From contig JAWLCT010000002.1 of assembly GCA_041687015.1 (NCBI GenBank), positions 64,073 to 128,072 on the forward strand: 64,000 nt of DNA, written 5' to 3'. The notes below the pieces were generated by a model. It had not been told where the DNA came from. It made no database searches and saw only the letters and a list, made by a program, of their open reading frames with translations. Each line of letters begins with the position of its first letter. The stretch's first letter is position 1. This DNA comes from Gammaproteobacteria bacterium (GTDB lineage: Bacteria; Pseudomonadota; Gammaproteobacteria; Thiohalomonadales; Thiohalomonadaceae). A program made the position numbers and the translations under genes. Shown in pieces: positions 16,642 through 46,561 of this stretch.

Positions 16642-18183
16642 GTGTATTTGTCCGAACTGGCCGACACCTCGGCACGGGTCGGGGCGCTTCCGTCGCGGAA
16701 CGCAAAGGTTCAAACCCTTGCCGGGGCCCTGCGTCGCCTGGAAAAGCGGGAGGCGGGCATCGGGGTGGCCTATCTGTCCGGGCGCCTGCCGCAGGGACGT
16801 GTTGGCGTCGGCCCGGCACTGGTGCGCCAGCTGCTCGAAAGCAGTTCGCCGGCGAAGGGTACCGCACTCACGCTGCCGGACGTAGATGCGGTCTTCGAGA
16901 AGATCGCAGCCGACCGCGAGGGCGGGGCCGCCAGGCGCCGCCTGCTCGCCCGCCTGTTCGCACGCGCCACCGACGCGGAACGCGGATTTCTCGCGCGCCT
17001 GCTTACCGGGGAATTGCGTCAGGGCGCACTCGAGGGATTGATGATCGAGGCCGTCGCGGAAGCCACACATCTGGAAGCGGCATCACTGCGACGCGCCGCG
17101 ATGCTGGCGGGCGATGCCGTTACCGTCGCTGAGTCTGCACTCGCGCAAGGGCCCGCGGGGCTTGCGCGATTCCACCTGCAACTGTTCGTTCCCGTGCGAC
17201 CCATGCTTGCATTGCCGAGCCCCGGCATCGGGGCTGCACTGAAGCAACTGGGCCCCGCCGCCTTCGAGTACAAACTGGACGGTGCACGCATCCAGGTCCA
17301 CAAGGACGGCGAGACCGTTCGCGTTTACTCGAGACGCGGGCACGAGGTGACCGACCGGGTTCCCGAGGTGGTGGCAGCCGCCGCGGCCATGCCGGCACGC
17401 ACGTTAGTACTCGATGGCGAGGCCGTGGCCCTGCAGCCGGATGGACGGCCGCAACCGTTTCAGGTGACCCTGCGCCGGTTCGCGCGTCGCCTCGATGTGG
17501 ATCGGCTGCGCCGACAAGTGCCGCTGGCGCCGTTCTTCTTCGACTGCCTGCACATGGAGGACGAAGACCTCATCGACCGCCCTGCCCACGAGCGCTTTGC
17601 GGCGCTGGCGGAGGCCACGGGCGGCATGGCGTTGGTGCCGCGGCGCATCACGGCGCAGGGGGTTGCGGCGCATGACTTTCTGGAAGAGGCCATGGCACAC
17701 GGTCACGAGGGCCTCATGGCCAAGGCCCTGGACGGCCGCTACGAGGCGGGTCAGCGTGGCTCCAGCTGGCTGAAGCTCAAACCCTTCCACACCCTGGACC
17801 TGGTCGTGCTCGCCGCCGAGTGGGGCCATGGGCGCCGCGCCGGCTGGCTCAGCAACCTGCACCTGGGCGCACGCAACGCAGCGGGGGAGATCGTGATGCT
17901 CGGCAAAACCTTCAAGGGACTCACTGACGCCACCCTGGCCTGGCAAACGCGCCAGTTGCTCGCCAGGGAAGTGGCGCGCGATGCCTGGACCGTTTACGTG
18001 CGCCCGGAACTGGTGGTGGAGATCGCCTTTGGTGACGTACAGGACAGTCCACGCTACCCCGCGGGCCTGGCGCTGCGCTTTGCACGGGTGAAACGCTATC
18101 GTCCCGACAAGACCGCCGCCGAGGCCAATACCCTGCAAGACGTGCAGGCCATCCATGCCCGCCTCGGTCGGGCAGAACGGTAG
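16642..18183 (+). CDS. ATP-dependent DNA ligase (LigB/Cdc9-like, about 514 aa)
   Basis: Adenylation Lys motif EYKLDGARIQVH, plus LDGEAV, EGLMAK, SSWLKLK and an OB-fold C-terminus. The GTG at 16642 lies just past the SPW gene stop. The earlier part of the 16219 ORF overlaps the SPW gene in another frame. Confidence 0.82.
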   Translation: MYLSELADTSARVGALPSRNAKVQTLAGALRRLEKREAGIGVAYLSGRLPQGRVGVGPALVRQLLESSSPAKGTALTLPDVDAVFEKIAADREGGAARRRLLARLFARATDAERGFLARLLTGELRQGALEGLMIEAVAEATHLEAASLRRAAMLAGDAVTVAESALAQGPAGLARFHLQLFVPVRPMLALPSPGIGAALKQLGPAAFEYKLDGARIQVHKDGETVRVYSRRGHEVTDRVPEVVAAAAAMPARTLVLDGEAVALQPDGRPQPFQVTLRRFARRLDVDRLRRQVPLAPFFFDCLHMEDEDLIDRPAHERFAALAEATGGMALVPRRITAQGVAAHDFLEEAMAHGHEGLMAKALDGRYEAGQRGSSWLKLKPFHTLDLVVLAAEWGHGRRAGWLSNLHLGARNAAGEIVMLGKTFKGLTDATLAWQTRQLLAREVARDAWTVYVRPELVVEIAFGDVQDSPRYPAGLALRFARVKRYRPDKTAAEANTLQDVQAIHARLGRAER

Positions 18184-19198: not shown

Positions 19199-20838
<1,640 letters not shown>

Positions 20839-20842
<4 letters not shown>

Positions 20843-28601: not shown

Positions 28602-29999
28602 TCACGCGTCGAGGTTGTAGCGTTTGATCTTGCGCCACAGGGTGGACTTGTCGATGCCCAGGATTTCCGCGGCAAGGCTACGATCCCCCTGGGTCTCGCC
28701 CAGAATCTTGCGGATGAACCACGTTTCCAGTTCTTCCAGGCTCTGGAGCGGTATATGCCCGTCGCTCTGCACCTCGCCCTGGGGACCGTTGATGCGCGGC
28801 GGCAACAGCTCCGCACCGATTTTTTCCCCCTCACAGAGAATGACCATGCGCTGGACCATGTGTTCCAGCTCGCGCACATTGCCCGGCCAGTGATAGCGCA
28901 TCATCAGCGCCAGCACCTCGGTGGTGAGACCGCTCAGCTGTTTCTGATACTGCCGGGCGAACTTGTTGACGAAAAAGTAAGCCAGCAGCGGAATGTCTTC
29001 GCGGCGTTCCCGTAACGGCGGCAGGGCCAGGTCCATGACCATCAGGCGGTAGTAGAGGTCTTCCCGGAACTGGCCGTTTTTGATCATGTCGGCCATGCTC
29101 CGGTTGCTGGCCGCCAGGACCCGCACATCCACGTAATGCGGCTCGGTTTCCCCCATGGGATAGAAACCACCGTCCTCGAGAACGCGCAGCAGCTTGGCTT
29201 GCAGTGACAGGGTGGCGTTGTTGATTTCGTCGAGAAACAGCGTGCCACCGTTGGCAACGTCAAACAGTCCCGGTTTGTTCCGATCTGCGCCCGTGAAGGC
29301 GCCCTTGCGGTAGCCGAACAGCTCGCTCTCGATGAGGTGTTCCGGGATCGCGGCGCAGTTGAGGGCGACGAATGGACGATCACGACGCTTGCTGTTCGCA
29401 TGGATCTGACGCGCCACCACCTCCTTGCCACTGCCGCTCTCGCCGGTGATGAGCACACTGCAGTCGTAATCCGCCGCTGCCGCGATAATCTCGCCGACGC
29501 GGGCCATGGCCTTGGACTGGCCGATCAGGCCGCCCTCCTCATAGATCCGGCTGCGCGCACGCAGTCGACGGTTTTCGCGCCCGAGCAGATGGTGTTCCAA
29601 AGCGCGCTCCACCGTGCAGCGCAGTTCGAGATTTTCGAACGGCTTGCGCAGGTAGTCGAACGCCCCTTTCTTGAACGCTTCGATGGCGGAGTCGACGCTC
29701 GCATAGCCGGTAATCAGCACCACCTGGGTGAGCGGCCCCCGTTCTTTGGCGGCAGCGAGTACATCGAGACCCCCGCAGCCGGGCATGCGCAGGTCTGTCA
29801 CGACGACCCCTACATCGCGTTTTTCAAGCACACCCACCGCCTCTTCGCCATCGCGGGCGCAAACCACGTCGGCTTTGTCCGCCAGCGGTTCCAGCACGCT
29901 GGCGATCAGGCCACGCATGTTCTCGTCATCCTCACTGATGAGGATGACCGGGCGTACAGGATCTTCACTCACGCCGGTCACAGACATCACTGCACTCAT
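28602..29999 (-). CDS. Sigma-54-dependent response regulator (NtrC family: REC, AAA+, Fis-HTH)
   Basis: REC domain (VILISEDDENMR...VVVTDLRMPG). Walker A ITGESGSGKE, GAFTGA loop (GYRKGAFTGAD), WPGNVRELE. C-terminal HTH AAEILGIDKSTLWRKIKR. Confidence 0.93.
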   Translation of the reverse strand: MSAVMSVTGVSEDPVRPVILISEDDENMRGLIASVLEPLADKADVVCARDGEEAVGVLEKRDVGVVVTDLRMPGCGGLDVLAAAKERGPLTQVVLITGYASVDSAIEAFKKGAFDYLRKPFENLELRCTVERALEHHLLGRENRRLRARSRIYEEGGLIGQSKAMARVGEIIAAAADYDCSVLITGESGSGKEVVARQIHANSKRRDRPFVALNCAAIPEHLIESELFGYRKGAFTGADRNKPGLFDVANGGTLFLDEINNATLSLQAKLLRVLEDGGFYPMGETEPHYVDVRVLAASNRSMADMIKNGQFREDLYYRLMVMDLALPPLRERREDIPLLAYFFVNKFARQYQKQLSGLTTEVLALMMRYHWPGNVRELEHMVQRMVILCEGEKIGAELLPPRINGPQGEVQSDGHIPLQSLEELETWFIRKILGETQGDRSLAAEILGIDKSTLWRKIKRYNLDA

Positions 30000-31434
30000 T
30001 CACCACTCTCCCTGGATTTACCCCCGGCATACGTAGAATGAAACGTGCCCCCTTGGTGAAATCCGAGTCATAACGCACATAGCCGCCGCGGCGTACCATC
30101 ATCGCCTGGCAGATAGACAGCCCCAACCCGCTGCCTTCGCCGACCTGTTTGGTGGTGAAAAACGGGTCAAAGATCCGGCTGCGGATCTCTGCGGGAATGC
30201 CCGGTCCGTTATCTTCCACCACGATGGACACGAAACCGTTGGCATCATCGCGGGCGGCCAGGCGGATGCGGGGTTCATGGACGCCGTCCAGTGCCTGAAT
30301 GGCATTGAGAATCAGGTTGGTCAGTACGATATCCAGTTGCCCACAGCCGCCGTCCAGCAGTAGCTCGCCGGGCGTGAGGTCCAGCTCCACACGGATGCTG
30401 TAACGCTTGAGTTTGCAGGTGATGAAGGTGTCGATGAGCTCGCGGATAAACTGGTTGATATCGCAGGTTTCGCCACTGCACGGGTCCCTGCGCGCATAGT
30501 TGAGCAAGTCGTGGACGATGCGTGAACAGCGCTTGGTTTCGTCCCCCACGATGCCCGCATAACGGCTGAGTTTCTCGTCGGCGGCCGCCGCTTCGCGCAG
30601 CAATTGTGAATAGCCGAGGATGTTTCCCAGCGGCGTGTTCAGTTCATGGGCCACACCGGCGGCGAGCTGCCCCATGGCCACCAGTTTCTCCCGTATTGCC
30701 ACACTGTCCTGCAACTGGCGGTATTCGGTAATGTCCTGAACGGTGATGACAGCACCCATATCCGTTTCATGCTCAGTCAAGAAAGCGAGATTGACACTCA
30801 ACCAATGATCAGTGTCTTTCAGGGGTACATTTATTTCCTGGTTGCGTAATGGATGCTTGTAAAGAAACGCGTCGCGCAGGACCTCGCGATCGTTTTCGTT
30901 CAGATGGAGCAGGTGGAACAGGTTTTTCCCCACAAGCTGTTCCTGGGACAGACCGAATAGTTCCTCTGCGGTCTTGTTGACCCCTGAGATCTGCAGATCG
31001 TCGGCGATATGCAACAGCGCGCCCGGCAGACTCTGGAGGATGGCATCAATCTTGTTGCGCTCGACAAGCACCCTGGCCTGACATTCTTCCACGGTGGAAA
31101 ACATCCTGTGGAGAATGGCAATCATGCGGTTATATTCCACGGTCACGTCGTGGAGCAGGCGATCCCCTACGGGCAGCAGTTTGACCGGCTCAAGCAGTCC
31201 TTCCTGCGCGCGCTGGATACTGTCGCGCAGGCGGTACATCGCCCGGCGTTGAGAGAAAAAAAACAGCCCTGCCATGAGCAGGGCTACAATGGAGGAGGCG
31301 GAGATCACCGCCACGGGGGGAATGTCACCAAGAAGGGTGGTGACGAAAACAATCAAGAGAACACCGGCAATTGACGCAGCAAAGAAGCGCCAATCGCGTG
31401 GAAAGCGGATTGTTGGCCTTTGGTTCGGCATCAC
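29965..31434 (-). CDS. Membrane PAS histidine kinase with almost no periplasmic loop
   Basis: Two adjacent TM helices separated by about 5 residues. PAS region (NKIDAILQSLPGALLHI...VNKTAEELFG). H-box LAAGVAHELNTPLG. N, G1 and G2 boxes (NLILNAIQA, DNGPGI, GEGSGLGL). It overlaps the regulator gene by 35 nt. Confidence 0.9.
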   Translation of the reverse strand: MMPNQRPTIRFPRDWRFFAASIAGVLLIVFVTTLLGDIPPVAVISASSIVALLMAGLFFFSQRRAMYRLRDSIQRAQEGLLEPVKLLPVGDRLLHDVTVEYNRMIAILHRMFSTVEECQARVLVERNKIDAILQSLPGALLHIADDLQISGVNKTAEELFGLSQEQLVGKNLFHLLHLNENDREVLRDAFLYKHPLRNQEINVPLKDTDHWLSVNLAFLTEHETDMGAVITVQDITEYRQLQDSVAIREKLVAMGQLAAGVAHELNTPLGNILGYSQLLREAAAADEKLSRYAGIVGDETKRCSRIVHDLLNYARRDPCSGETCDINQFIRELIDTFITCKLKRYSIRVELDLTPGELLLDGGCGQLDIVLTNLILNAIQALDGVHEPRIRLAARDDANGFVSIVVEDNGPGIPAEIRSRIFDPFFTTKQVGEGSGLGLSICQAMMVRRGGYVRYDSDFTKGARFILRMPGVNPGRVVNECSDVCDRRE

Positions 31435-31460
31435 GCCTGCGTCCCCCCCGAGTGCAAGCG

Positions 31461-31483
31461 GGCGGGGCCGCGCGGGCCCCCGC
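31461..31483 (-). terminator. GC hairpin between the porin gene and the kinase gene (possible attenuator or partial terminator)
   Basis: The minus strand reads GGCGGGGGCC-CGCGC-GGCCCCGCC, a stem with one bulged G. It starts 6 nt after the porin stop and has no U-tract. Confidence 0.35.
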
Positions 31484-31488
31484 CATGG

Positions 31489-32649
31489 TTAAAAAATCAT
31501 CTGAAAGCCCAGCGTGGCCTGGTTGTAATCACGCAGGGAAACATCGGTCGGGTGGTCCTGGTCGAAATCCACAGACATGTACTCACCTGTGAACTTCAAC
31601 TTCTGGCCATCCAGATAGTAATTGAAGCCGGCTCCGCTTTTTGTATTGTCGAGGAGTCCGTCGTCCAGATTGTACTCGGCCTCGTCGTAGCGGGCAAAAA
31701 ACTGCAGCCGACCCGGTCCGACTTTGTTGGGAAGCAGATAACCGACCTTGGCGTAGTAGGCATCCAGCTCGGTGTTCAGCGGCAAAGCAGCGTCCGGGTC
31801 CTGATTAATCGCATCACCAACGCTGTAATCGAACACGGCCGCTGAAACGGTGAAGGTCCCCGCAGCAGTGGGATACTCGAAGAACATGTCCACCGTGGTG
31901 GCTTCGTAATCCTGCGCATCCTCGCGCAACGGGTAATCGGCATACGCGACGTCTGCCTGGGTGTCGTATGCGGCGCCGAGAGTAAACACCGTTTGCGTGC
32001 CCAGGTAGGTACCCCGGTAGCCATAATCGTACTCGGGGTCCAGGGGACTCCAGTGCACACGGGCAGTCAGGCGCGGAGAGTCCTTGGCGACTTCGTCGCC
32101 TTCGCGCCCGTCCGCTGCCATGACACGATACTGAAAAGCGCCGTCGGCCAGGTTGCCCCACAGCGCCACCCCGGTGTCGCGGCTCCCGCCGAATGGAGTA
32201 AACGAAATATCGCTGCGATCCAGGGTAAGCGGTTCGAGACAGGCCTCGAGGTTTTCTCGAGAAAAGGTGTTTTTGAAACGCCCGCCGATAAAACGCATGG
32301 CGTCGGAATAGTCGAGCGTCACGTAGGCGTCACGATAAAACACTTCGCGATCGTCGTTACCGTCTTTGCTGTCGCTGCCTGCCTCCAGCTGCGCATAGAA
32401 ACCGACGTAATCATTGTACTGGCCGGTGAACGTAAGACGGTTGCGGCGCAGGAAGAAATCGGTTTGGTCTCCCGAATCATTGGCGGACGTAAAGTCCTGC
32501 TGCTGAAGCCACATCTGCAGGGCGTAATTCACGGAGATATAGCCCTGTTCACCGAATTGAATCGAGGGACCGGCAAGCGCCATGCTGGGCAGGCCGGCAA
32601 TGAGTGCACCGGCAAGCAGACGGCGCGTCTTGTTAGCAATGACATCCAT
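31489..32649 (-). CDS. Outer-membrane porin, phosphate-selective porin O/P-like
   Basis: Signal peptide ...LPSMALAGP. Long alternating beta-strand pattern rich in Y/F/G/D. Terminal ...ATLGFQMIF. Confidence 0.8.
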   Translation of the reverse strand: MDVIANKTRRLLAGALIAGLPSMALAGPSIQFGEQGYISVNYALQMWLQQQDFTSANDSGDQTDFFLRRNRLTFTGQYNDYVGFYAQLEAGSDSKDGNDDREVFYRDAYVTLDYSDAMRFIGGRFKNTFSRENLEACLEPLTLDRSDISFTPFGGSRDTGVALWGNLADGAFQYRVMAADGREGDEVAKDSPRLTARVHWSPLDPEYDYGYRGTYLGTQTVFTLGAAYDTQADVAYADYPLREDAQDYEATTVDMFFEYPTAAGTFTVSAAVFDYSVGDAINQDPDAALPLNTELDAYYAKVGYLLPNKVGPGRLQFFARYDEAEYNLDDGLLDNTKSGAGFNYYLDGQKLKFTGEYMSVDFDQDHPTDVSLRDYNQATLGFQMIF

Positions 32650-32650
32650 A

Positions 32651-33151
32651 CTACTTGCCTCCCCCCATGACGCTCAGGTAGCGGGTAACTTTCGTGTCGG
32701 CATCGGCCGAATGACAGCTGGCACAGCTTTGTTCGGTGTGTTGGCGCGGGTTGGCGATGAGCTTGTTATGCGCCATTTCCTTGCGAATGATGCGTGGGTT
32801 CCCGTTGTGGCACCCGGCGCAGGAATTGTTGACGGTGCGGTGTTCCGCATGCCATGGCGCGGTGGCGGGGTCCTCGTTGGGCGCATCCGCACGCGTACCG
32901 TTGTGACATTTGAAACAACTCGAAGCCCCGAGTCCGCAGGCGTTTGCCACGCTGATCAGCGAGAATCCGCTCACACCCTCGTGGACCGCAGCCAGGCTTT
33001 CCGCGCCCCAGCCTTCCTCCCCGGAACCATCGGCCACGGATGTCGGCAGGGATTCGAGCACCGCAGCGCCGACGGCCACGACGGTCAGCGTCACCACGGC
33101 GAAACTGGCGTTACGCAATGTGCGTCCCAAGCGCTTTATGAAGGCTTCCAT
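32651..33151 (-). CDS. Trihaem c-type cytochrome, membrane-anchored or secreted
   Basis: Three CxxCH motifs (CFKCH, CAGCH, CASCH) after an N-terminal hydrophobic helix (ASFAVVTLTVVAVGAAVL). GGAGAA RBS before the ATG at 33151. Confidence 0.82.
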   Translation of the reverse strand: MEAFIKRLGRTLRNASFAVVTLTVVAVGAAVLESLPTSVADGSGEEGWGAESLAAVHEGVSGFSLISVANACGLGASSCFKCHNGTRADAPNEDPATAPWHAEHRTVNNSCAGCHNGNPRIIRKEMAHNKLIANPRQHTEQSCASCHSADADTKVTRYLSVMGGGK

Positions 33152-33152
33152 A

Positions 33153-33398
33153 TCATTCTCCTTTGGAGGTTTCTCGTTGCTGCGATTTCGGGCCGGGATC
33201 GACCCGTTCTTGTTGTTTCTGTTGGTTTCGCCGTTCCGCTTCGCGAATGGCGCGTTCACTGAGCCCGTCATTGCACATGCACGGTGGACCGCTTCGGAAT
33301 TTCAGGCGTCCGTCCCGAACCGGTTCGCCGGACTGAGCGAGCACCGAGGTGGCCGTCAACGCCAGTACCGTCAGGAGTGTTCCATCAACAATCCGCAT
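33153..33398 (-). CDS. Small secreted protein with a CxC motif (81-aa precursor)
   Basis: Signal peptide MRIVDGTLLTVLALTATSVLAQS. The predicted mature part contains PPCMCNDG and a highly charged tail. It fills the gap between the two cytochrome genes, overlapping the upstream gene and ending 1 nt before the downstream start. Confidence 0.45.
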   Translation of the reverse strand: MRIVDGTLLTVLALTATSVLAQSGEPVRDGRLKFRSGPPCMCNDGLSERAIREAERRNQQKQQERVDPGPKSQQRETSKGE

Positions 33399-34668
33399 GG
33401 CGATTGCACTCCTGACGGATGCGCGCGTCCTCGCGCGTGAGCAACATGTCCAATGAGCGGCTGACGCTCAGCGCCTCGAAGCGCGTTTGACGCGCCTCTT
33501 CGAGTGCCCGGCGCAGCTCGGCCACGGTGAGTGCATCCATGCGATCCGCCTGTCCGAGGCTGTGGGCAAACACGCGCTCGTAATGTTCGCGTGGCGCCAC
33601 ATGCAACTGAGCGGCAATCCGCCAGCCGGTCGTTTGCGGTAGCGGGAAGCCTCGCTCGAATTCGAGCCGACCGCCGGCCGGAATACGGGTGTCGAACAGT
33701 TCGCGCGTGATGCCCACGTCTGCACCCCAACCGATCACTTCCTCCCCGAGGGGCTGTGTTTCTCCGTCAGGCCCATGCAGGCTGAGGCGCACATACACCT
33801 TGGGCACCATGTAGGTGGGGAAGTGGTGGCCGGCACCGACATTGGTGACCGTCACGCGCACGGCGCCGCGACCGTTGTCCCGAAACGGCACCAGGTCCAC
33901 ATTCACCGCAGCGCGCACCGTGGCCGGGTCGTGCACACCCTTGAACAGGTGCTGCCGGTCGGGCATATGGCATTGCTGACAGGACTGCTTCCCGGCGAAC
34001 GGGCTGGCCCGCCACTGCGCAAACGTGTCTTCCTGCAACTTGCCGGCAAGTCGCGGTCCGTCATCCGGAAACTGGTGGCAGGTCGCGCAGAACCGACTGT
34101 CGCCAAAGGCCTCATTGGCGGTGAAGCCGTTGTGGGCGGTGCCTTTCAGTCCGTTCTGCGGTCGCGCAGGCGGGCCGAAGCGTTGATGCTCACGCACGTG
34201 GCACACGGCGCACGCCACGCCCTGGCGGTGAAGATCGGCCGGGATGTAATCGGGGCGCGGCCGCTGCGGCGCGGCAGACCAGCCGCGCTCCAGTGCCACC
34301 AGGGCCTTCTGCTCGGCGAGCGGCGCGTGGCAGCGTAGACACCGGTTGCCCTGCGCCTGATCCATGAGCCGCAACTGCCATTGGATACCCGGGCCCATGG
34401 CACGGCTGTGCAAACTGCTACGCCAGGCCTCCCATTGATCGGCGTGGCACTGGGCGCACGCCGCGGCGCCCAGAGACGCCTCCAGGGCCGAACTGCCCGC
34501 CGCGGGTGCACCTTGGGTCGGCAGGGGATGATTCCAGTGATTGCTCAGGAATGTGTCCACAGGATCCTCCGCACTCGGGGTGATGGCGGCGACGCGGCCG
34601 AGCCACACCTGCCAGGCCAGGAACACCAGGCCTGCCGCCACCACCATGCCCATCCACGTCCGCTTCAT
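33385..34668 (-). CDS. Pentahaem c-type cytochrome with a non-haem C-terminal domain
   Basis: N-terminal TM/signal MKRTWMGMVVAAGLVFLAW. Five CxxCH motifs (CAQCH, CLRCH, CAVCH, CATCH, CQQCH). About 170-aa C-terminal region (VTVTNVGAGHHFPTYMVPK...). Confidence 0.85.
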   Translation of the reverse strand: MKRTWMGMVVAAGLVFLAWQVWLGRVAAITPSAEDPVDTFLSNHWNHPLPTQGAPAAGSSALEASLGAAACAQCHADQWEAWRSSLHSRAMGPGIQWQLRLMDQAQGNRCLRCHAPLAEQKALVALERGWSAAPQRPRPDYIPADLHRQGVACAVCHVREHQRFGPPARPQNGLKGTAHNGFTANEAFGDSRFCATCHQFPDDGPRLAGKLQEDTFAQWRASPFAGKQSCQQCHMPDRQHLFKGVHDPATVRAAVNVDLVPFRDNGRGAVRVTVTNVGAGHHFPTYMVPKVYVRLSLHGPDGETQPLGEEVIGWGADVGITRELFDTRIPAGGRLEFERGFPLPQTTGWRIAAQLHVAPREHYERVFAHSLGQADRMDALTVAELRRALEEARQTRFEALSVSRSLDMLLTREDARIRQECNRHADC

Positions 34669-34708
34669 CGTCGGTGACGGTGAGCCGCCTCAGCGACCCA
34701 CCTGTCGT

Positions 34709-36145
34709 TCAACCGCCGCAAGGGTTTGCCGGCAGTGTCGCGCCACTGTCACCTGAACCGCTGCTCTCGGTTGTGCCGAGCTTGTACAAACGGTCCTCGC
34801 GGACAATGGCGTTGGCGCTGTGCGCGTACGGGTCCTTGATCTCGCGGGTTGCCACACTCAAGGCGGAGGCCGCTGGCATAAAGTGCGAGCGTGTATCCGT
34901 ACGCCAGGGCGAGTCGCTCGGCAGCAGGTAATTGCCCGTGGCGTCCTGGAGATGGGAAAGCGAGTTCCACTCGACCATCGCGCCGTCATAGAAGCGGGTC
35001 GGCTTGCCCAGGATCACGGCGCTGGCGATGCCGGTGATCATGGCGCGCATGGTGGTTTCGCAATAGGTGTAAATGGTGTCGCCCGGCTGGTAGGCGTTGC
35101 CGACGCCGACACCCTGGTAAGTGGCATCAAAGAAACCCTTGCCGGATCCGTCGATGTAGCCGGCCAGGTAGTCGGCCAACTCCGCCTTGGTCTTGAAGCG
35201 CACACTATCGCCTGCAGTGCCCACCAGAAGGTTGGTGAAATTCAGTTGCAGTGCGCCCCACGGATGACCCTGACGGGAGCCACCGTTTTGGAAGATGCCG
35301 CCGCCGTCACCCGTCGCTTCGCCACCGCTGTATTGTTCGACACTACGGGCGTCCCAGATGAACACACCGTCGGCGAGGTCGTTGGTGTCGCTGGTCGGCA
35401 GTACGGCAAGCATGTCCTGCAGCGTGGCTTGCAACACGGTGTTGTCCGTCTTCAGCTCGGTCACACTGAAGGTGCCGGGTATGGTGGGGAGATTGGTTGC
35501 CGTGGCCTGGAAGTCCCCGGGGGCGGTCATTGCGCCATCGGTCACCTGCCAGTCGTTCGACCCGTTCAGCAGCGCAAGGTGCGAAGCGTCCACGCCCCAG
35601 TAGCGCAGGGTATACCAGCAGCGTCCCTGAGCCATCGCATTGCTCGTACTACCCGTGCCTTGCGCACAAACGATCATGTCCCGGCTTGGGTCGATGGCGT
35701 GCTTCTGCAGCAGTGCGTCAATGGACGGCCCGTCCAGCACCATGCTTTGAGTGGTGATGACGCCGTTGGAACGCACCATCGACCAGTCAGTGCCGGGTAC
35801 GAGGTAGGTGACCACGTTTGTGCCGTTGGCGGCGATGAATTCGGTACCCCCAGGCCCTGCCGACACCTGCAAGATCACCAGTTTGCCCGTCACGCCGGCG
35901 GGCCGCTCGTTGGCCCAGTCATCCTTCCAGCGCTTTAGCGTCGTCCCGGTGATCAGACCGTTGACGTTATCGTCATAGTCATCGGCCGAGGCTTGGGCGA
36001 TGTCGGCGGCCGAATTCACTTTGATGCCCACGGCCGGGGCGGTATCGTCCTCGCCACCGCCACAGGCGCTTAGCACCACCGCGAACAGGCACGCGCCAAC
36101 ACGGCCAGCCCACCCCCCGTGTGAAATCCGTGTTACTTCCGTCAT
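34709..36145 (-). CDS. Lipoprotein with tandem rhodanese-like domains and a C-terminal flexible tail ending Cys-Gly-Gly
   Basis: Lipobox VVLSAC. Domain 1 is MIVCAQGTGS...LRYWGV...LLNGSNDW. Domain 2 is IYTYCETTMRAMITG...FYDGAMVEW. The tail is TTESSGSGDSGATLPANPCGG*. AGGAG RBS before the ATG at 36145. Confidence 0.8.
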   Translation of the reverse strand: MTEVTRISHGGWAGRVGACLFAVVLSACGGGEDDTAPAVGIKVNSAADIAQASADDYDDNVNGLITGTTLKRWKDDWANERPAGVTGKLVILQVSAGPGGTEFIAANGTNVVTYLVPGTDWSMVRSNGVITTQSMVLDGPSIDALLQKHAIDPSRDMIVCAQGTGSTSNAMAQGRCWYTLRYWGVDASHLALLNGSNDWQVTDGAMTAPGDFQATATNLPTIPGTFSVTELKTDNTVLQATLQDMLAVLPTSDTNDLADGVFIWDARSVEQYSGGEATGDGGGIFQNGGSRQGHPWGALQLNFTNLLVGTAGDSVRFKTKAELADYLAGYIDGSGKGFFDATYQGVGVGNAYQPGDTIYTYCETTMRAMITGIASAVILGKPTRFYDGAMVEWNSLSHLQDATGNYLLPSDSPWRTDTRSHFMPAASALSVATREIKDPYAHSANAIVREDRLYKLGTTESSGSGDSGATLPANPCGG

Positions 36146-36203
36146 GTTTCCACTCCTGTACGTCTGGTTCGGACCACGAGGCGGTGCATCGCCCCGTACG
36201 CGA

Positions 36204-36401
36204 TCAGTCAGCCACTCCACCCGCGAACACGGGCACTGCACCACTTTCAAGCAAATCGAGAATGCGCTCGGCATCGGAGGCCGCGGCGCACTCGACCCGG
36301 CAGCCCGCCGTGGCCAGGGCCGCGGAAAGCCGCGGCACGAATCCATCCGCGGACGCGCCGTCGAGCGCGCTGGAAATCAGGACAATGGTTTTGGTGTTCA
36401 T
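36204..36401 (-). CDS. Miniature DsrH/TusB-like protein (65 aa)
   Basis: MNTKTIVLISSALDG... The ATG overlaps the upstream stop (ATGA). The assignment rests on context and a weak pattern only. Confidence 0.4.
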   Translation of the reverse strand: MNTKTIVLISSALDGASADGFVPRLSAALATAGCRVECAAASDAERILDLLESGAVPVFAGGVAD

Positions 36402-36649
36402 ATCAGGTACACCGCATCTGCCGTGGCGATCCTGCTGGCCAGCGCGGCCATGCCCGCGGTGGTGTCGATCGCCAGTTGCTCCACCGGGACATCGGCGAAA
36501 TCCAAAGCTTCAAGGTGCTCTTCGGCATCGGGTGCCAGTTCGCCGCAGATGGCGACATTGACGGCGTCGTCGAGCAGCGTCAGGCCGGCTGCCATACGCA
36601 GTGCCTCGGTGCGTCTGTTCATCGCCACAACCAGTATTTGCTTTTGCAC
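36398..36649 (-). CDS. Miniature DsrF/TusC-like protein (83 aa)
   Basis: MQKQILVVAMNRRTEALRMAAGLTLLDD...ADAVYLI has a DsrE/F/H-like beta-alpha start and end. GAGGAGG RBS upstream. Confidence 0.45.
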   Translation of the reverse strand: MQKQILVVAMNRRTEALRMAAGLTLLDDAVNVAICGELAPDAEEHLEALDFADVPVEQLAIDTTAGMAALASRIATADAVYLI

Positions 36650-36658
36650 AGAACCTCC

Positions 36659-36964
36659 TCAGAACACCACGACGCGATCGGAAAGGTGCGCCAGCTCCGC
36701 ATCCTGGTACTGCCCCCCGATCACCACGTGTTCGGCGATGTTTTTCGGCACCTCAACGGAGTAGCGTTCAACGCTCAGTTCACAAACCGCAAGCCAGGTC
36801 TTGCCATCAGCGGCCAGACGCTGAAGCGTCAGTTCATGGAGTGCGTGGACACCGCTGTCGGTCAGGAAACAGCGCAGATGCCAACCACGCTCCGCGGCGG
36901 CCTGCAAGGCACGGCAAGCGTCGGGAACGAGGGACTGTTCGGTGATCACCACGCCGAGATTCAT
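36659..36964 (-). CDS. DsrE-family small protein (101 aa)
   Basis: MNLGVVITEQS..., a conserved Cys in WLAVCELSVERY, and the family-typical end HVVIGGQYQDAELAHLSDRVVVF. Confidence 0.62.
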   Translation of the reverse strand: MNLGVVITEQSLVPDACRALQAAAERGWHLRCFLTDSGVHALHELTLQRLAADGKTWLAVCELSVERYSVEVPKNIAEHVVIGGQYQDAELAHLSDRVVVF

Positions 36965-36968
36965 GGGG

Positions 36969-37220
36969 TCAGGCCTTCCGAATCAGCCAGGTGAACGAGC
37001 CGCCATTGTCTTTGCGCTCGAACAGTTCATTACCGTCGGTATCGCACATGGCAATGATGGATTCACCGGAAGACGGATTGTCGAAAAGCAGCGTCAGCAC
37101 GTCGCCGGAAGCCATCTTCTGTAACGCTTTTTTTGTATACATTTGCGGATGCGGACAGCTGTAGCCTCTGACGTCCAGGGAAAAGGTACCGTCACCCGTT
37201 TGCTCGAATTTCACTGCCAT
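36969..37220 (-). CDS. TusA-like sulfurtransferase (83 aa)
   Basis: SLDVRGYSCPHPQMYTKKAL...GDVLTLLFDNPSS carries the CP-x-P active-site motif. GGAG RBS before the ATG at 37220. Confidence 0.85.
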   Translation of the reverse strand: MAVKFEQTGDGTFSLDVRGYSCPHPQMYTKKALQKMASGDVLTLLFDNPSSGESIIAMCDTDGNELFERKDNGGSFTWLIRKA

Positions 37221-37249
37221 CTCTCGGCTCCTTGTCAGGCTAAAGTCAG

Positions 37250-38701
37250 TTAGAGATCGAATTCGCCGCTGCGCGAGGCGCGCCATTCAAGCCACGTGTT
37301 GAACGCCTTCACGCCCAGATAACCACCGCCGACCATGCCGGCCAGGAACACCCAGCCGCTGAGATCGCCGTTGGTTACCGTCGCGAAAAAGGCGCCGATG
37401 TTGCAGCCCATGCCGATGCGCGCACCGATACCCATGAGGGTGCCGCCGACCAGGGCGAACACGGCGGTCTCCAGGCTCGGCAGCTTCCACTTGAATTCAC
37501 GGCGCATGTGGGCCATTACGGCGGCCCCGAGAATGATGCCGATGGACATGAAGCCGGGTGCGTTGAGCAGCGGATTGGGCAGGCCGTTGTCCAGACCGAA
37601 GAAAATGTTGTCCATGTTGTCCACACCCAACTGGTTCAGAATCCAGCCGCCCCACTGGGCCTCCTGGGTGGTGATGTACCAGTAGCCGGGATCAAACACG
37701 GTGCCCTGCAGCGAAAGACCGTTTTCGTAACCCATCGCGGCCAGCAGTTCGCCAAAGTTGAAAATGTTGTAGTGCTCGCGCAGGGCACCGGTGATCCACA
37801 TCTGCATGCCGGCGAAAATGCCCAATCCCGCCCCGGCCAACGCGGTGCTCTTCGAGGATGTCACCATGGCCCACAAGCCGCGCAGATCGCTGCCCAGGCT
37901 CGGCGCGACGGCTTCGCGGCGCAGGTAACTGCGGCGGAAGTAGCGCACGTAGAGCAGCACGAGCAGTACCAGCGACGGCAGGATGGCCGACAGCAGCGCG
38001 TTGGCGAGAAAGGCCCCCGCGACGGTGCCGTCCATGCCCAGATCGGCGGCCACGGTGCTGCCCTTCAGATCCCAGACGTAACCCGCAGTGAATTGGTCGA
38101 ACCAACCTTGGGTGACCGACAGTTCGGCAGGCATGTCTTTGGCCTGTGCCGATGCCGTCCAGGCGGCGGGGACCAGCGCATCGAGCCATCCGCCGGCGGC
38201 AACGATAATCGCCTGGGAAAAGGAGATGGCGAAGATGACCAGCATGGACCCGACGTTGCCCTCGCCGGCCTTGTACAACGAGCCGGACGCGCAGCCGCCC
38301 GTGAACACCATGCCGAAACCGAAAATGAGACCGCCGATGATCACGTGCCAGCCGAGCGGGTGCGGGCCGAAGGTGCTGAACCCTGTGGCCTGTACCGTTG
38401 CAGCGGTCAGGGAGAACAGGCAGACGGCGATGAGCATTCCCACCGCCATCCGGGGCACGCCCACGGCAAACAGATCGCGCACTGCCGAGGCCATGCAAAA
38501 GCGCCCGTACTGCAGAAGCAGGCCATAGATGAGCCCAAACCAGGCGTAGACGAGCAGATAGACGAAGCGGGTATCCACGCTCAGCGCAGCGATGGAACCG
38601 AGCACCACCAGCGCGACGATGATGCTGGCGGCCTTGGTGTTGCCCTGGGTCAAACCGGCAATGAACGCGGGTTTGGCTTGCAGTACGTGTTCTTCGCTCA
38701 T
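37250..38701 (-). CDS. YeeE/YedE-family sulfur-compound permease, double-length (483 aa)
   Basis: About 12 hydrophobic helices with the family Cys motifs GRFCMASAVRD, FTGGCASGSLY and RIGMGCNIGAF. Confidence 0.9.
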   Translation of the reverse strand: MSEEHVLQAKPAFIAGLTQGNTKAASIIVALVVLGSIAALSVDTRFVYLLVYAWFGLIYGLLLQYGRFCMASAVRDLFAVGVPRMAVGMLIAVCLFSLTAATVQATGFSTFGPHPLGWHVIIGGLIFGFGMVFTGGCASGSLYKAGEGNVGSMLVIFAISFSQAIIVAAGGWLDALVPAAWTASAQAKDMPAELSVTQGWFDQFTAGYVWDLKGSTVAADLGMDGTVAGAFLANALLSAILPSLVLLVLLYVRYFRRSYLRREAVAPSLGSDLRGLWAMVTSSKSTALAGAGLGIFAGMQMWITGALREHYNIFNFGELLAAMGYENGLSLQGTVFDPGYWYITTQEAQWGGWILNQLGVDNMDNIFFGLDNGLPNPLLNAPGFMSIGIILGAAVMAHMRREFKWKLPSLETAVFALVGGTLMGIGARIGMGCNIGAFFATVTNGDLSGWVFLAGMVGGGYLGVKAFNTWLEWRASRSGEFDL

Positions 38702-38754
38702 ATCCGTCCTTTAACTGGTTGTTCTTATCCGTTGCACATCGGTCAACGTTCTGT

Positions 38755-39108
38755 TCAGTCTGTCGACAGGCCTTTGCGTAGGTAGACGCGCCAGTGATCC
38801 AGTTCCTTGATGGTGCCGAGATGCGTGCCACACACCACGAACATCAAAGCGGGCAGTGTCTCGACGGTGGCCGGGTTGTCGGACAACACCTCGATCACCT
38901 GGCCCTCCTGCAACTGGTCCATCACCTTCATGGTGAGTAACTGAGGCCGTGGGCAGGCGGCGCCCATGCAGTCCAGGGAGCGCTCGACCGTGACCGTGGC
39001 ACCTGCAAGCGCAACGCTTCGTGGTCCGCGTGTGACGGAGCCTCGCGGCGTTTTCTTCCAGCCTTGCCACCAGCGCAGTCCCACTCGGCGCCCCCAGGTA
39101 CTTGCCAT
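38755..39108 (-). CDS. TusA-like sulfurtransferase with an Arg/Trp-rich N-terminal extension (start uncertain: ATG 39108 or GTG 39084)
   Basis: Core SLDCMGAACPRPQLLTMKVMDQL..GQVIEVLSDNPATVETLP has the CP-x-P motif. No in-frame start lies close to the core. The sigma-54 promoter match at 39122-39137 favours the GTG at 39084. Confidence 0.72.
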   Translation of the reverse strand: MASTWGRRVGLRWWQGWKKTPRGSVTRGPRSVALAGATVTVERSLDCMGAACPRPQLLTMKVMDQLQEGQVIEVLSDNPATVETLPALMFVVCGTHLGTIKELDHWRVYLRKGLSTD

Positions 39109-39121
39109 GCAGCCCCCATAA

Positions 39122-39137
39122 AGCAGGCTTCGTGCCA
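39122..39137 (-). promoter_or_regulatory. Candidate sigma-54 (-24/-12) promoter of the sulfur/cytochrome cluster
   Basis: The minus strand reads TGGCACGAAGCCTGCT, against the consensus TGGCAC-N5-TTGCW. GG and GC are at the canonical spacing, with one mismatch in the -12 box. A sigma-54 activator is encoded at the distal end of the same cluster. Confidence 0.55.
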
Positions 39138-39230
39138 TACCCAAATAGCTCGGTGTATCAATCGGTTAGGAAAATTCCCGGATTTGAGGTCAATGCAAGA
39201 TGCAACGCAAAGGCGGGTTCAGGCGGGCGC

Positions 39231-39247
39231 GATTGCATTTTGCAATC
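39231..39247. promoter_or_regulatory. Perfect 17-bp palindrome, candidate enhancer (UAS) for the sigma-54 activator
   Basis: GATTGCATTTTGCAATC lies about 95-125 bp upstream of the sigma-54 promoter match. A further direct repeat ATGCAAGATGCAAC is at 39192-39205. Confidence 0.45.
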
Positions 39248-39375: not shown

Positions 39376-39786
39376 TTACTGGATCACGAAATCGGTGAAG
39401 TAGACGGCGTGCACGGTGGCAGGATCGCCCGTGCTCTTGGTGACCTGACTGACGACCGTCTGCACGGCCGCCAGGGCCTCCTGACGCAAGGCTTCGCGGC
39501 CATCGGGGTTGCGCAGGGTCGCGGCGTCCTGGTGGGCGAACAACATGATCAATTGGTCACGTACGGCGGGCATGTGCGCCTCGAGGGCCTGCTGTACCTT
39601 GGGGTCTGCCATGACCTGCATCTTCACCTGCATGAAGCGCACGCGACGCCCATCGGTGAGGTTCACCACGAAAGGGTCCAGGGCGAGATAGGCGTCGCCG
39701 CCCTGCTCGGCGGCGACCGCCGTACCGTGGGCGGCATGCAACAGACCGGCAGCGAACAATAACGGAATGATGGCAATCAGGCGCAT
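39376..39786 (-). CDS. FliL-like protein, stand-alone
   Basis: TM helix MRLIAIIPLLFAAGLL, then YLALDPFVVNLTDGRRVRFMQVKMQVM...MPAVRDQLIMLF, which is typical of FliL. No flagellar genes are nearby. Confidence 0.68.
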   Translation of the reverse strand: MRLIAIIPLLFAAGLLHAAHGTAVAAEQGGDAYLALDPFVVNLTDGRRVRFMQVKMQVMADPKVQQALEAHMPAVRDQLIMLFAHQDAATLRNPDGREALRQEALAAVQTVVSQVTKSTGDPATVHAVYFTDFVIQ

Positions 39787-39867
39787 GGTGAAATCATCCG
39801 GAACAAGTGGCCACATGATGCCACAACCGCGGACATCGAAACGTGCCCCGGGCGCAGGTCCGGCGTC

Positions 39868-45122: not shown

Positions 45123-45446
45123 ATGATGAACGAATCGGATTTCAATCGCCTGGTCGATGCCCAGTTGTTGCGCATCGAGGAGGCCATCGATGCCAGCGGC
45201 GCGGACATCGATTACGAGAACGCCGGTGGCATTCTCACCCTGCACTTCGAAAACGGCTCACAGATCGTGATCAACCGCCAAACGCCGGTACGCCAGATCT
45301 GGGTCGCCGCCCGCAGCGGCGGGTTTCATTTTGCCCACGACGAAGCCAACGGCGTGTGGCGCAGCGACAAGGACGGCCGCGACCTGATGGCCGCGCTGAG
45401 CGAGCTGGTGAGCGCCCAGGCGGGCGAGCCGGTGGCGTTGGGCTGA
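45123..45446 (+). CDS. cyaY: Iron donor protein CyaY (frataxin homologue)
   Basis: MNESDFNRLVDAQLLRIEEAID...GILTLHFENGSQIVINRQTPVRQIWVAARSGGFHF. Confidence 0.92.
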   Translation: MMNESDFNRLVDAQLLRIEEAIDASGADIDYENAGGILTLHFENGSQIVINRQTPVRQIWVAARSGGFHFAHDEANGVWRSDKDGRDLMAALSELVSAQAGEPVALG

Positions 45447-45514
45447 TCCCGATCAATATCCCCGCGCCCGAGGGGGCGAATATACTTCCGGACCAGGGAA
45501 AAGGGAGGGAACGT

Positions 45515-46561
45515 ATGCTTAAGGGGTTCTTGCTCGCGGCGGCGTTCGCCATGGTGCCCACGGCCATGGCAGCACCGGACGGCGCCCGGCTCTACAGTCA
45601 ACACTGTGCGGCCTGCCATGGCCTGCATGGAGAGGGCGGTGTGGGTGTGCCCCTCGCGCTGCCCGATTTTCTCTCCACCGCGGATGACGATTTCCTGCGC
45701 AAGACCCTGCGCAATGGCAGGCCGGGCCGCGTGATGCCCGCCTTCCGCTCCCTCAGCGACACCGAGGTGGACGCCCTGGTGGCGCACCTGCGCAGCTTCG
45801 CCAAGCCCGGCGCACCGGCGCCCCGCAAACTGTCCACCCAATCCGTGCAGGGGAACGCGACGCGCGGCGGTGAACTGTTCGCCACCCACTGCGCCAGTTG
45901 CCACGGGGCCAACGGCGAAGGCGGCCATGGCACGGGGGTGACCTTCTCGCGCCCGCGCAACCTGCCCATCATGCCGCCCGCGCTGAACAATCCCGGCTTC
46001 CTGGCGGCCGCCTCGGACGCGATGATCAAGGCGACGCTCATGCGCGGGCGCGAGGGCACGCCCATGATTTCCTATCTGGACCAGGGCCTGTCCGAACAGG
46101 ACATCGACGATATCGTCGCCTTCGTGCGCAGCTTCGAACAGCGCGCGCCCGCGAAAATCCGCGCGCCCGTGGACGAGCCCATGTTCCTGGAAGCCGAGTC
46201 GTCCTATTCCCTCGAGGAGACGGTCGAAAACGTCAAGCGGGCGGCGATTGGCAAAAACTTCCGCATCATCCGCGAACAAAGCCTGGAGCACGGCTTCTTC
46301 CCCGAGGACCAGGAGAATGCCAAGCAGGTCATCGTCTATTTCTGTAATTTCAATTTCATCAACCAGGCGCTCAGCCTCGACCCGCGCGTTGGCCTGTTCC
46401 TGCCCTGCCGCGTCACCGTGGTGGAGCAGGACGGGGTGGTAAAAGTGCTGAGCATCAATCCCAAGCACCTTTCCGCGCTGTACAACAACCGGGAGCTCGA
46501 TGAAGCCTGCGATCAGATGACCGAACTGTACGAAGGCATCCTGGAGGAGGCGACGCTATGA
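45515..46561 (+). CDS. Dihaem cytochrome c fused to a DUF302 domain
   Basis: Signal peptide MLKGFLLAAAFAMVPTAMA. Two class-I modules (CAACHG...M, CASCHG...M). The C-terminal 130 aa resemble DUF302 (VIVYFCNFNFINQAL...PCRVTVVEQDG). GGGAGGGA RBS. Confidence 0.8.
   Translation: MLKGFLLAAAFAMVPTAMAAPDGARLYSQHCAACHGLHGEGGVGVPLALPDFLSTADDDFLRKTLRNGRPGRVMPAFRSLSDTEVDALVAHLRSFAKPGAPAPRKLSTQSVQGNATRGGELFATHCASCHGANGEGGHGTGVTFSRPRNLPIMPPALNNPGFLAAASDAMIKATLMRGREGTPMISYLDQGLSEQDIDDIVAFVRSFEQRAPAKIRAPVDEPMFLEAESSYSLEETVENVKRAAIGKNFRIIREQSLEHGFFPEDQENAKQVIVYFCNFNFINQALSLDPRVGLFLPCRVTVVEQDGVVKVLSINPKHLSALYNNRELDEACDQMTELYEGILEEATL

Follow-up and report, generated by a model that had tools for sequence, protein, structure and literature searches.

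Two described gene modules come closest to the locus analysed here, a 13-gene cluster in a 64,000-nucleotide (nt) stretch of DNA, referred to as the window, from a Gammaproteobacteria bacterium (contig JAWLCT010000002.1, positions 64,073 to 128,072). The first is extHIJKL of Geobacter sulfurreducens, which encodes the rhodanese lipoprotein ExtH, the porin ExtI, the small periplasmic protein ExtJ and the pentahaem selenoprotein ExtKL (PMC6148476, PMC5877670). ExtKL was characterised in August 2026 as MccSep, a periplasmic homotetrameric polysulfide reductase that is induced by elemental sulfur (S0), is required for S0 respiration and also reduces selenite, less efficiently than polysulfide; its activity depends on the haem-2 ligand Cys239 and on the selenocysteine (Sec) at position 325 (PMC13510729). 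In Desulfuromonadales, a gene for a LysR-family regulator lies upstream of most homologous ext clusters (PMC6148476). The second module is the YTD cluster (yedE-tusA-dsrE plus two small genes), also called DsrEFH type II (PMC13293266, PMC12998232). Transfer of sulfane sulfur from TusA to DsrE (Cys67) and on to DsrC has been demonstrated in vitro for this type (PMC13293266), and about one fifth of the DsrEFH type II subtype 1 sequences come from Pseudomonadota (PMC13293266, PMC12998232). Among related transporters, the YeeE-like SoxT1A imports sulfur for cytoplasmic oxidation (PMC11582611) and YedE1E2 imports zero-valent sulfur (PMC10812762).

A long-standing gap concerns the passage of zero-valent sulfur (polysulfide, S0 or carrier-bound sulfane sulfur) through the envelope to cytoplasmic Dsr or sHdr. 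Experiments so far support two of its steps only, transport across the inner membrane (SoxT/YeeE-like) and the relay by TusA and DsrE in the cytoplasm. In the operon of the window, these two steps are physically joined to an anion porin of the outer membrane, a rhodanese lipoprotein with a Cys arm and cytochromes of the periplasm. An earlier note, made from the letters of this DNA, had recognised no catalytic system in the cluster and had proposed an undescribed pathway. That proposal is only half right, because the porin passes the ExtI cutoff, the lipoprotein is a distant relative of ExtH, as the pentahaem cytochrome is of ExtKL, and the other half has the gene content of a YTD cluster; both halves thus match published modules. 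The cluster joins two known module types, one Ext-like and one YTD-type, and is not a categorically new system, whereas the fusion of these modules in sulfur oxidisers and the loss of the MccSep catalytic Cys and Sec from the cytochrome appear to be new. ExtI homologues had been listed in Thiohalobacter thiocyanaticus and Thioalkalivibrio sulfidiphilus, and none had been studied (Jahan et al., 2018). In the literature we found no account of the fused cluster or of how it is regulated, none of an MccSep-like cytochrome stripped of its catalytic residues and none of a lipoprotein tail tipped with Cys; searches for locus tags of the form Tgr7_006x, and for YedE/YeeE alongside ExtI in sulfur oxidisers, returned no description of a fused cluster. 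With moderate confidence, we propose that the operon encodes a sigma-54-induced, envelope-spanning system that would capture zero-valent (sulfane) sulfur and relay it on cysteines into the cytoplasm.

The cluster occupies 28602–39144 on the minus strand. The thirteen densely spaced, co-directional open reading frames (ORFs) that the earlier note had described are all present in the six-frame ORF list, and its intergenic spacings, which range from some -35 to +58 nt and include a number of start/stop overlaps, were reproduced once the starts of several genes (the lipoprotein at 36145, the trihaem cytochrome at 33151, TusA2 at 37220 and TusA1) had been refined by homologue alignments and ribosome-binding context. 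Pfam and NCBIfam upheld its family assignments, apart from corrections given below gene by gene, and the spread of functions that it had read across outer membrane, periplasm, inner membrane and cytoplasm is supported. The features are as follows.

39231–39247, minus strand: palindrome GATTGCAAAATGCAATC, read from sequence as a candidate enhancer (upstream activating sequence, UAS) for an NtrC-type activator.
39122–39137, minus strand: sigma-54 (-24/-12) promoter TGGCACGAAGCCTGCT, with one mismatch to TGGCAC-N5-TTGCW.
38755–39107 (or start at 39083), minus strand: TusA-like sulfur carrier 1 (TusA1); Pfam TusA, 52.8 bits.
37250–38701, minus strand: YeeE/YedE-family inner-membrane sulfur (or selenium) transporter (YedE) of 483 amino acids (aa); Pfam Sulf_transp, 156.6 bits.
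36969–37220, minus strand: TusA-like sulfur carrier 2 (TusA2), 83 aa; Pfam TusA, 72.1 bits.
36659–36964, minus strand: miniature DsrE-like sulfurtransferase, 101 aa, candidate active Cys61; weak Pfam DsrE match and AlphaFold2 (AF2) fold.
36398–36649, minus strand: 83-aa conserved partner protein, candidate DsrF-like subunit; no family match.
36204–36401, minus strand: 65-aa conserved partner protein, candidate DsrH-like subunit, by conserved position and motif.
34709–36145, minus strand: ExtH-like rhodanese lipoprotein with a C-terminal Cys on a glycine-rich tail; Pfam Rhodanese, NCBIfam ExtH below cutoff.
33385–34668, minus strand: pentahaem c-type cytochrome, MccSep/ExtKL relative; five CxxCH motifs, NCBIfam ExtKL below cutoff.
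33153–33398, minus strand: 81-aa exported mini-protein (p81) with an invariant CxC; motif RLKFR-GPxCMC-xxGLSE.
32651–33151, minus strand: trihaem c-type cytochrome with an N-terminal hydrophobic anchor or signal; three CxxCH motifs.
31489–32649, minus strand: ExtI-type anion porin (OprO/P fold), 386 aa; NCBIfam porin_ExtI, Pfam Porin_O_P.
29965–31434, minus strand: membrane PAS histidine kinase; Pfam PAS, HisKA and HATPase_c.
28602–29999, minus strand: NtrC-type sigma-54 enhancer-binding response regulator; Pfam Response_reg, Sigma54_activat (230 bits), AAA_lid_14 and HTH_8.

Three of these genes begin too late in public gene calls: the lipoprotein (36031), TusA1 (38967) and the 83-aa protein (36622). 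As called, the lipoprotein has 440 aa and lacks the signal peptide and lipobox, so that its lipoprotein nature would be hidden in automated annotation; TusA1 has 70 aa and misses conserved N-terminal residues, and the 83-aa protein is cut to 74 aa.

The porin ties the cluster to the Geobacter module. It scores 346.1 bits against the NCBIfam model porin_ExtI (NF040900; equivalog cutoff 150), with residues 16–386 covered, and 57.5 bits against Pfam Porin_O_P, and it has 1208 relatives at E ≤ 1e-10. Its gene adjoins those of a rhodanese-like lipoprotein and of multihaem cytochromes, in related loci as in the window. The sole Cys of the protein, C137 in the motif ENLEACLEPLTLDR, is conserved in 80 of 80 homologues, and Geobacter ExtI has also been reported with a single Cys (PMC5877670).

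With its start at ATG 36145, the lipoprotein begins with the signal MTEV...AVVLSAC and carries the lipobox LSAC, the Cys of which is conserved in 65 of 69 homologues. It scores 89.7 bits with NCBIfam ExtH (NF040901), below the cutoff of 200. The protein had been described as a tandem-rhodanese lipoprotein; Pfam recognises a rhodanese only in its C-terminal domain, in which the active-site Cys is conserved in 68 of 69 homologues, and the Cys of the N-terminal half is conserved in just 30 of 69. The C-terminus reads ...PANPCGG, and the Cys of the terminal PCGG is kept in 67 of 69 homologues. This glycine-rich Cys tail (...NPCGG) recalls the GGCGG swinging arm of SoxY; the arm here is carried by a rhodanese lipoprotein and not by a SoxY fold, and the likeness is an analogy only. 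The family is small (264 cluster representatives among 1.84 billion proteins), and many of its members have a glycine-rich tail with a terminal Cys, including two, more distant from the window protein, that pass the ExtH cutoff (415 and 290 bits). Bona fide ExtH shares with the window protein the lipobox, the rhodanese Cys and the tail with its terminal Cys. The lipoprotein had no match among PDB sequences. By its C-terminus, the family (P0320–P0469) splits into members with a glycine-rich tail and Cys (CGG or GC) and members that end in ...EDKAYK without a Cys tail.

The five CxxCH motifs of the pentahaem cytochrome are conserved in 75–76 of 77 homologues. The protein reaches 52.3 bits with NCBIfam ExtKL (NF040886), below the cutoff of 250, and its best match in PDB is MccSep itself (9wt8, E = 1.6e-5). 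In the alignment, QCCTSY of MccSep falls on QEDT-F of the window protein, so that C239 is replaced by E/D, and E213 and D214 are conserved. The MccSep loop TNHAGHSIPDGUP, aligned manually from the peptide quoted in PMC13510729, corresponds to an invariant N-x-G-A-G-H-x-F-P-T-Y-M-V-P, which in the window reads NVGAGHHFPTYMVPK; the position of Sec325 is occupied by M (61 of 77 homologues) or by an invariant Y. No non-haem Cys is conserved among the 77 homologues. Eight invariant His residues outside the motifs would make bis-His ligation of all five haems possible. The cytochrome thus keeps the five haem motifs and the N-x-x-G-H-x-x-P loop of MccSep/ExtKL and, as judged from the alignments, lacks the feature that defines that family catalytically, the haem-ligating Cys239 together with Sec (or Cys) at 325.

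In the trihaem cytochrome, the three CxxCH motifs and an additional Cys, C112 in ANACGLGASSCFKCH, are conserved in 79–80 of 80 homologues, the additional Cys itself in all 80. The protein scores 24.8 bits with NCBIfam ExtS (cutoff 100) and has a weak match to cytochrome c7. We rejected the additional Cys as a lipobox Cys, as the preceding S-P-I/V-x-L-A-N-A-C is not the hydrophobic h-region of a signal peptide; neither of the two cytochromes has a convincing lipobox. The CxC of p81 is invariant in 40 of 40 homologues, and the motif was found in 17 additional loci; neither Pfam nor NCBIfam gave the protein a family match. In two loci (L012, about 9250–10000; L038, about 9235–10000), a p81-like CxC protein is encoded in a single uninterrupted ORF with the trihaem cytochrome. 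Such a fusion would support a functional pairing of the two; the hydrophobic helix between the parts is a topological puzzle, and the fusion may be an assembly artefact.

With ExtH, ExtKL and ExtS as the best NCBIfam matches of its members, the porin/cytochrome half is a distant relative of the Geobacter sulfurreducens extHIJKL cluster. In both, neighbouring genes encode a lipoprotein of the rhodanese type, an ExtI porin, a small exported protein and a periplasmic cytochrome with five haems. They differ in gene order, in ExtH and ExtKL scores that lie well under the equivalog cutoffs, in the separate trihaem cytochrome with its extra Cys, in the absence from the window of the electron-input genes ExtMNOPQS, and in the addition here of YedE, two TusA proteins, the DsrE-like trio and a sigma-54 two-component system.

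The other half begins with the transporter, which matches Pfam Sulf_transp (PF04143) at 156.6 bits, against a gathering cutoff of 27, and the YeeE structure of Spirochaeta thermophila (6leo) at E = 1.3e-19. Its C69, C137 and C433 align to the functional C22, C91 and C293 of YeeE and are conserved in 65–66 of 67 homologues. The earlier note had described a double-length permease; the protein is instead a single full-length YeeE-type transporter with a central insert of about 100 aa. Like YeeE/TsuA-YeeD and SoxT1A (6leo, 8k1r; PMC11073785, PMC11582611), it belongs to one transporter family, has three functional Cys and is adjacent to a TusA-family partner. Unlike YeeE/TsuA-YeeD, it lies far under the cutoffs of the two TsuA models (112 bits against 400, and 94 against 645), has the central insert and sits in a much larger, envelope-spanning operon. 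Both TusA copies match NCBIfam YedF models; the CPxP Cys of TusA1 is conserved in 63 of 63 homologues, and C44 (CPHP) and C81 of TusA2 in 67–68 of 69.

Of three miniature DsrE/F/H-like proteins proposed earlier, the first stands. The 101-aa protein has a weak Pfam DsrE match, its C61 is conserved in 61 of 62 homologues, and its AF2 model (predicted local distance difference test score, pLDDT, 95) returned only members of the DsrE/DsrF/TusBCD family among its top 10 Foldseek matches in PDB, with TM-scores up to 0.78. The second and third are candidate DsrF- and DsrH-like subunits. The 83-aa protein, the homologues of which average about 61–62% column identity, has no Pfam or NCBIfam family match, and its AF2 model (pLDDT 95), a small Rossmann-like beta-alpha-beta fold, gave generic Foldseek matches only. 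The 65-aa protein corresponds to an ORF of 58–69 aa at the same position in nearly all of the 58 loci examined; these share the motif LDaLe..PVVlK and have no conserved Cys. Profiles of the small proteins against PDB sequences, and hhalign among the three, gave nothing significant. We did not count these sequence-based nulls against a DsrF/H-like nature, since type II DsrEFH proteins are reportedly invisible to sequence methods.

The small proteins here are, like those of the YTD/DsrEFH type II clusters, not recognisable by sequence methods, and the composition of the two systems agrees: each has TusA, a transporter resembling YedE, a small DsrE in which one Cys is active and a pair of small, conserved hypothetical proteins, in matching synteny. 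The window cluster differs in its occurrence in gamma- and betaproteobacterial sulfur oxidisers, in its fusion to an Ext-like module and a sigma-54 system, in having two TusA genes, and in a trio of about 27 kDa (estimated from 249 residues) against 33 kDa.

The earlier note had also asked whether the gene neighbourhood is conserved. A scan of one genome per species by porin alignment yielded 189 relatives, and the 13 window proteins were compared by tblastn with the best 80 loci. The full collinear order (TusA-YedE-TusA-DsrE-83aa-(65aa)-lipoprotein-pentahaem-(p81)-trihaem-porin-kinase-activator) recurs in 50 of the 80, from two proteobacterial classes, which is far beyond chance. It is found in Gammaproteobacteria (Thiohalomonas, Thiohalobacter thiocyanaticus, Thiogranum, Candidatus Thiodiazotropha and Thiohalophilus) and in Betaproteobacteria (Thiobacillus, Sideroxydans, Hydrogenophilus, Lautropia and Burkholderiaceae). 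Nine loci, from Solimonas, Cellvibrio, Moraxellaceae and Spongiibacteraceae, have a short variant (lipoprotein-p81-trihaem-porin-YedE-TusA-pentahaem) with neither the DsrE trio nor the regulators, and four, from Sulfuricaulis and Acidiferrobacteraceae, have a split variant in which the YedE half lies a few kilobases downstream of the regulators; the other 17 are truncated by contig ends and are not contradictory. The break between the cytochrome/porin half and the TusA/YeeE half that had been named as telling against a single system was not seen: YedE and TusA accompany the porin/cytochrome half in all 63 loci with enough flanking sequence. Over the region compared, the window is identical to a 168.6-kilobase contig of JGI metagenome 3300049891. 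The closest genomic relatives are metagenome-assembled genomes of Gammaproteobacteria and Thiohalomonadaceae (porin identity 81–88%), and a complete cluster with all hallmarks surrounds Tgr7_0066 in cultured Thioalkalivibrio sulfidiphilus HL-EbGr7. Most hosts oxidise sulfur chemolithotrophically. When 116 ORFs that flank 33 of the loci were surveyed with Pfam, these and the Solimonas flanks gave only unrelated housekeeping genes, which differ between lineages. The cluster therefore behaves as a self-contained unit, which suggests that it moves as one.

Sigma-54 control, which had also been proposed, is supported by the DNA upstream of the first gene. The promoter TGGCACGAAGCCTGCT is the sole good sigma-54 match in the cluster; because it lies inside the longest TusA1 ORF, the true TusA1 start must be downstream, at ATG 39107 or GTG 39083. 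Of 55 related loci, 50 have a GG-N10-GC motif in the 350 nt that precede the first TusA gene; the background frequency of this motif is 0.38 per kilobase. The TTGCA core of the palindrome GATTGCAAAATGCAATC begins 108 nt upstream of the promoter match, and about 40 of 50 loci have a (G/A)TTGCAAA element at position -108 ± 2 relative to the promoter (background 0.15 per kilobase). The GATTGCAAA element is a candidate for a role in sigma-54 control. Five of six short-variant loci checked, which have neither kinase nor activator, lack both promoter and upstream element. The cluster thus holds each part of an NtrC-type two-component system: an activator with REC, AAA+ and HTH domains, a cognate kinase, the promoter and the upstream element. 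As read from its sequence, the kinase has two predicted N-terminal transmembrane helices only a few residues apart, with almost no periplasmic loop, and so, with no periplasmic sensor domain, probably senses a cytoplasmic or membrane signal. Six of its Cys, including a CSGETC pair, are conserved in 60–65 of 66 homologues, which suggests redox, metal or persulfide sensing inside the cell. Scans for terminators and sigma-70 promoters gave background levels only.

Two variations on this arrangement were seen elsewhere. A second sigma-54 promoter precedes the lipoprotein gene in 22 of the 80 loci (L001–L080) and in Thioalkalivibrio sulfidiphilus (L084, 10809), which would divide the operon into two sigma-54 units in many lineages; none was found in the window, where only 58 nt separate the third small gene from the lipoprotein gene, or in its nearest relatives. 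One short-variant locus, from Cellvibrionaceae (L036, 7031–7151), keeps a sigma-54 promoter with TTGCAAA 105 nt upstream and has no regulators in the cluster, implying that the regulator is encoded elsewhere.

The homology of both halves, the ExtH tail, the hosts, the linkage, the regulatory DNA and a chain of cysteines all count in favour of sulfane-sulfur import. In homologue alignments, this chain of near-invariant Cys runs through the porin, the lipoprotein, the CxC protein, the trihaem cytochrome, YedE, TusA and DsrE. From gene content, homologies, conserved residues, synteny and regulatory DNA we infer which substrate is used, which way electrons flow, in what order sulfur is transferred and where it ends up, as follows. 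The ExtI-type porin would admit anionic sulfur, most likely polysulfide or S0-derived sulfur, with thiosulfate as a possible alternative. The ExtH-like lipoprotein, anchored in the outer membrane, would hold sulfane sulfur as a persulfide by means of its active-site Cys and flexible C-terminal Cys arm, and the pentahaem cytochrome, the Cys-bearing trihaem cytochrome and the CxC mini-protein would carry out the redox chemistry that cuts or trims S–S chains. The YeeE/YedE-type transporter would then move sulfur across the inner membrane to TusA and on to the miniature DsrE complex, from which it could enter oxidation (by DsrC/rDsr or sHdr) or biosynthesis. Control by the PAS kinase would run from the NtrC-type activator, by way of the conserved upstream element, to the sigma-54 promoter.

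Several observations weigh against this proposal. The substrate and the transport function of the cluster are both predicted by sequence comparison. Neither sox, dsr, shdr nor sqr was seen in the window or in the two flanking ORFs per side of 33 loci, so that the link to oxidation rests on host taxonomy. The short variant occurs in bacteria such as Solimonas, Cellvibrio and Moraxellaceae, which are not known as sulfur oxidisers. The pentahaem cytochrome lacks both residues that are essential to the polysulfide reductase activity of MccSep, and the best NCBIfam match of the transporter, below cutoff, is a selenium-linked YedE/FdhT model. Finally, the 83-aa protein gave no specific DsrF-like match, and the DsrF/H nature of the 83-aa and 65-aa proteins is that of candidates only.

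A more specific and, in our estimate, unlikely version of sulfane-sulfur import would make the cluster a previously unrecognised 'cysteine fishing-line' for insoluble or extracellular sulfur. Here the glycine-rich, Cys-tipped tail of the lipoprotein would thread into the ExtI porin, of which the invariant C137 lies in the motif ENLEACLEPLTLDR, or dock on it, and sulfur would be handed over from Cys to Cys, passing from the porin to the lipoprotein arm, the rhodanese site, the CxC mini-protein and trihaem cytochrome, YedE, TusA and DsrE. The pentahaem cytochrome, related to MccSep and stripped of its catalytic residues, would do no more than donate or withdraw electrons. Were this so, the missing route would be at hand: many sulfur oxidisers among the Gamma- and Betaproteobacteria would use it to activate zero-valent sulfur outside the cell and to bring it in for oxidation in the cytoplasm.

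The main alternative, which we also consider improbable, is that the same parts handle selenium (or tellurium). Selenite would enter through the ExtI porin and be reduced in the periplasm by the cytochromes and by the thiols of the lipoprotein and CxC protein; YedE would import selenotrisulfide or perselenide, and the TusA/YedF-like and DsrE-like proteins would deliver selenium to selenophosphate synthesis, or the system would detoxify it to Se0. Loss of ExtI in Geobacter impairs selenite and tellurite reduction (PMC5877670), the title of a 2019 paper, as cited in PMC13510729, names selenite uptake through ExtI, and MccSep reduces selenite, if less well than polysulfide; the physiological role of that cytochrome, however, is now assigned to S0 respiration (PMC13510729). 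The window proteins lead in the same direction by name: the NCBI family of the porin is called 'selenite/tellurite reduction operon porin ExtI', the top NCBIfam match of the transporter is selen_YedE_FdhT (150 bits) and the TusA copies match YedF models. The selenium-family matches of the transporter and of the TusA copies are nevertheless all far under their cutoffs (350 for selen_YedE_FdhT), and the DsrE-type module has been shown to pass sulfane sulfur to DsrC (PMC13293266). Selenium handling would explain the short variant in bacteria that are not known as sulfur oxidisers. On the other side, selD, selA, selB and ybbB were not seen in the window or in the two flanking ORFs per side of 33 loci, and in our judgement a 13-gene sigma-54 operon seems large for the acquisition of a trace element. 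As the sox, dsr, shdr and sqr genes are missing from the same neighbourhoods, genomic context does not separate sulfur from selenium. The NCBI pipeline already applies the ExtI label, and its automatic 'selenite/tellurite reduction operon' annotation, now spreading in these genomes, may mislead.

A reductive or disproportionating role, in which the cytochromes would act as a periplasmic polysulfide or S0 reductase during anoxic respiration or disproportionation and YedE-TusA-DsrE would import part of the sulfur for oxidation, is quite unlikely. It is suggested by the MccSep sequence motifs of the pentahaem cytochrome and by its best PDB match; yet the Cys and the Sec that MccSep requires are both missing in all 77 homologues, and the cluster has no quinol dehydrogenase or bc-type module, unlike Geobacter with its ExtMNOPQ. 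In disproportionating Desulfobacterota the YTD cluster is up-regulated, and it counts as a candidate marker for S0 disproportionation (PMC12998232). A lipoprotein resembling ExtH might also pass polysulfide sulfur on to a reductase. Wolinella offers an analogy in its Sud–Psr pair, a periplasmic rhodanese that feeds sulfane sulfur to a reductase. The hosts of the present cluster, however, are known mainly as aerobic or denitrifying sulfur oxidisers.

A porin–cytochrome conduit for extracellular electron transfer (Mtr/Pcc type), as first proposed for Geobacter extHIJKL, which has been catalogued among putative outer-membrane conduits, is highly improbable and was rejected as the principal explanation: a porin is indeed paired with multihaem cytochromes here, but there is no outer-surface multihaem lipoprotein cytochrome, the sole lipoprotein being a rhodanese, the porin is a 386-aa anion channel of the OprO/P type, the fixed association with YedE, TusA and DsrE points to chalcogen transport and not to electrons alone, and Geobacter ExtI is dispensable for Fe(III) reduction (PMC5877670).

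Read as a system for sulfane-sulfur import, the cluster gives the entire path of zero-valent sulfur into the cytoplasm a definite candidate that can be put to the test. At least 189 genomes of sulfur oxidisers that matter in the environment have the linkage, among them symbionts (Candidatus Thiodiazotropha) and Thiobacillus; Thioalkalivibrio sulfidiphilus HL-EbGr7 and Thiohalobacter thiocyanaticus are cultured hosts. The cluster is also a natural experiment, in which the role of an MccSep-like cytochrome can be followed after loss of the catalytic Cys and Sec.

The rest of the window holds housekeeping genes (glgP, rho, rhlB, ectB, lysA, cyaA and exopolysaccharide genes), and no hdr genes, transfer RNAs or Rfam matches were found in it. 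Immediately upstream of the cluster, before xerC, lies a lone FliL-family gene (39376–39816, minus strand) with no other flagellar genes nearby. About 6 kilobases from the cluster, 45356–46561 (plus strand) encodes a 401-aa multi-domain c-type cytochrome with CcoP-like or dihaem-like matches, which could be a periplasmic electron partner; its adjacency to the cluster is not conserved elsewhere. At 19199–20842 (plus strand), a 547-aa AhpF-like protein has its N-terminal half fused to a thioredoxin-reductase-like domain, and this half passes the NCBIfam model 'protein disulfide oxidoreductase' (PDO_seleno_TRX) at 232 bits against a cutoff of 185. An ATP-dependent DNA ligase (685 bits) at 16219–18183 (plus strand) carries an N-terminal extension of about 140 aa that lies outside the model.

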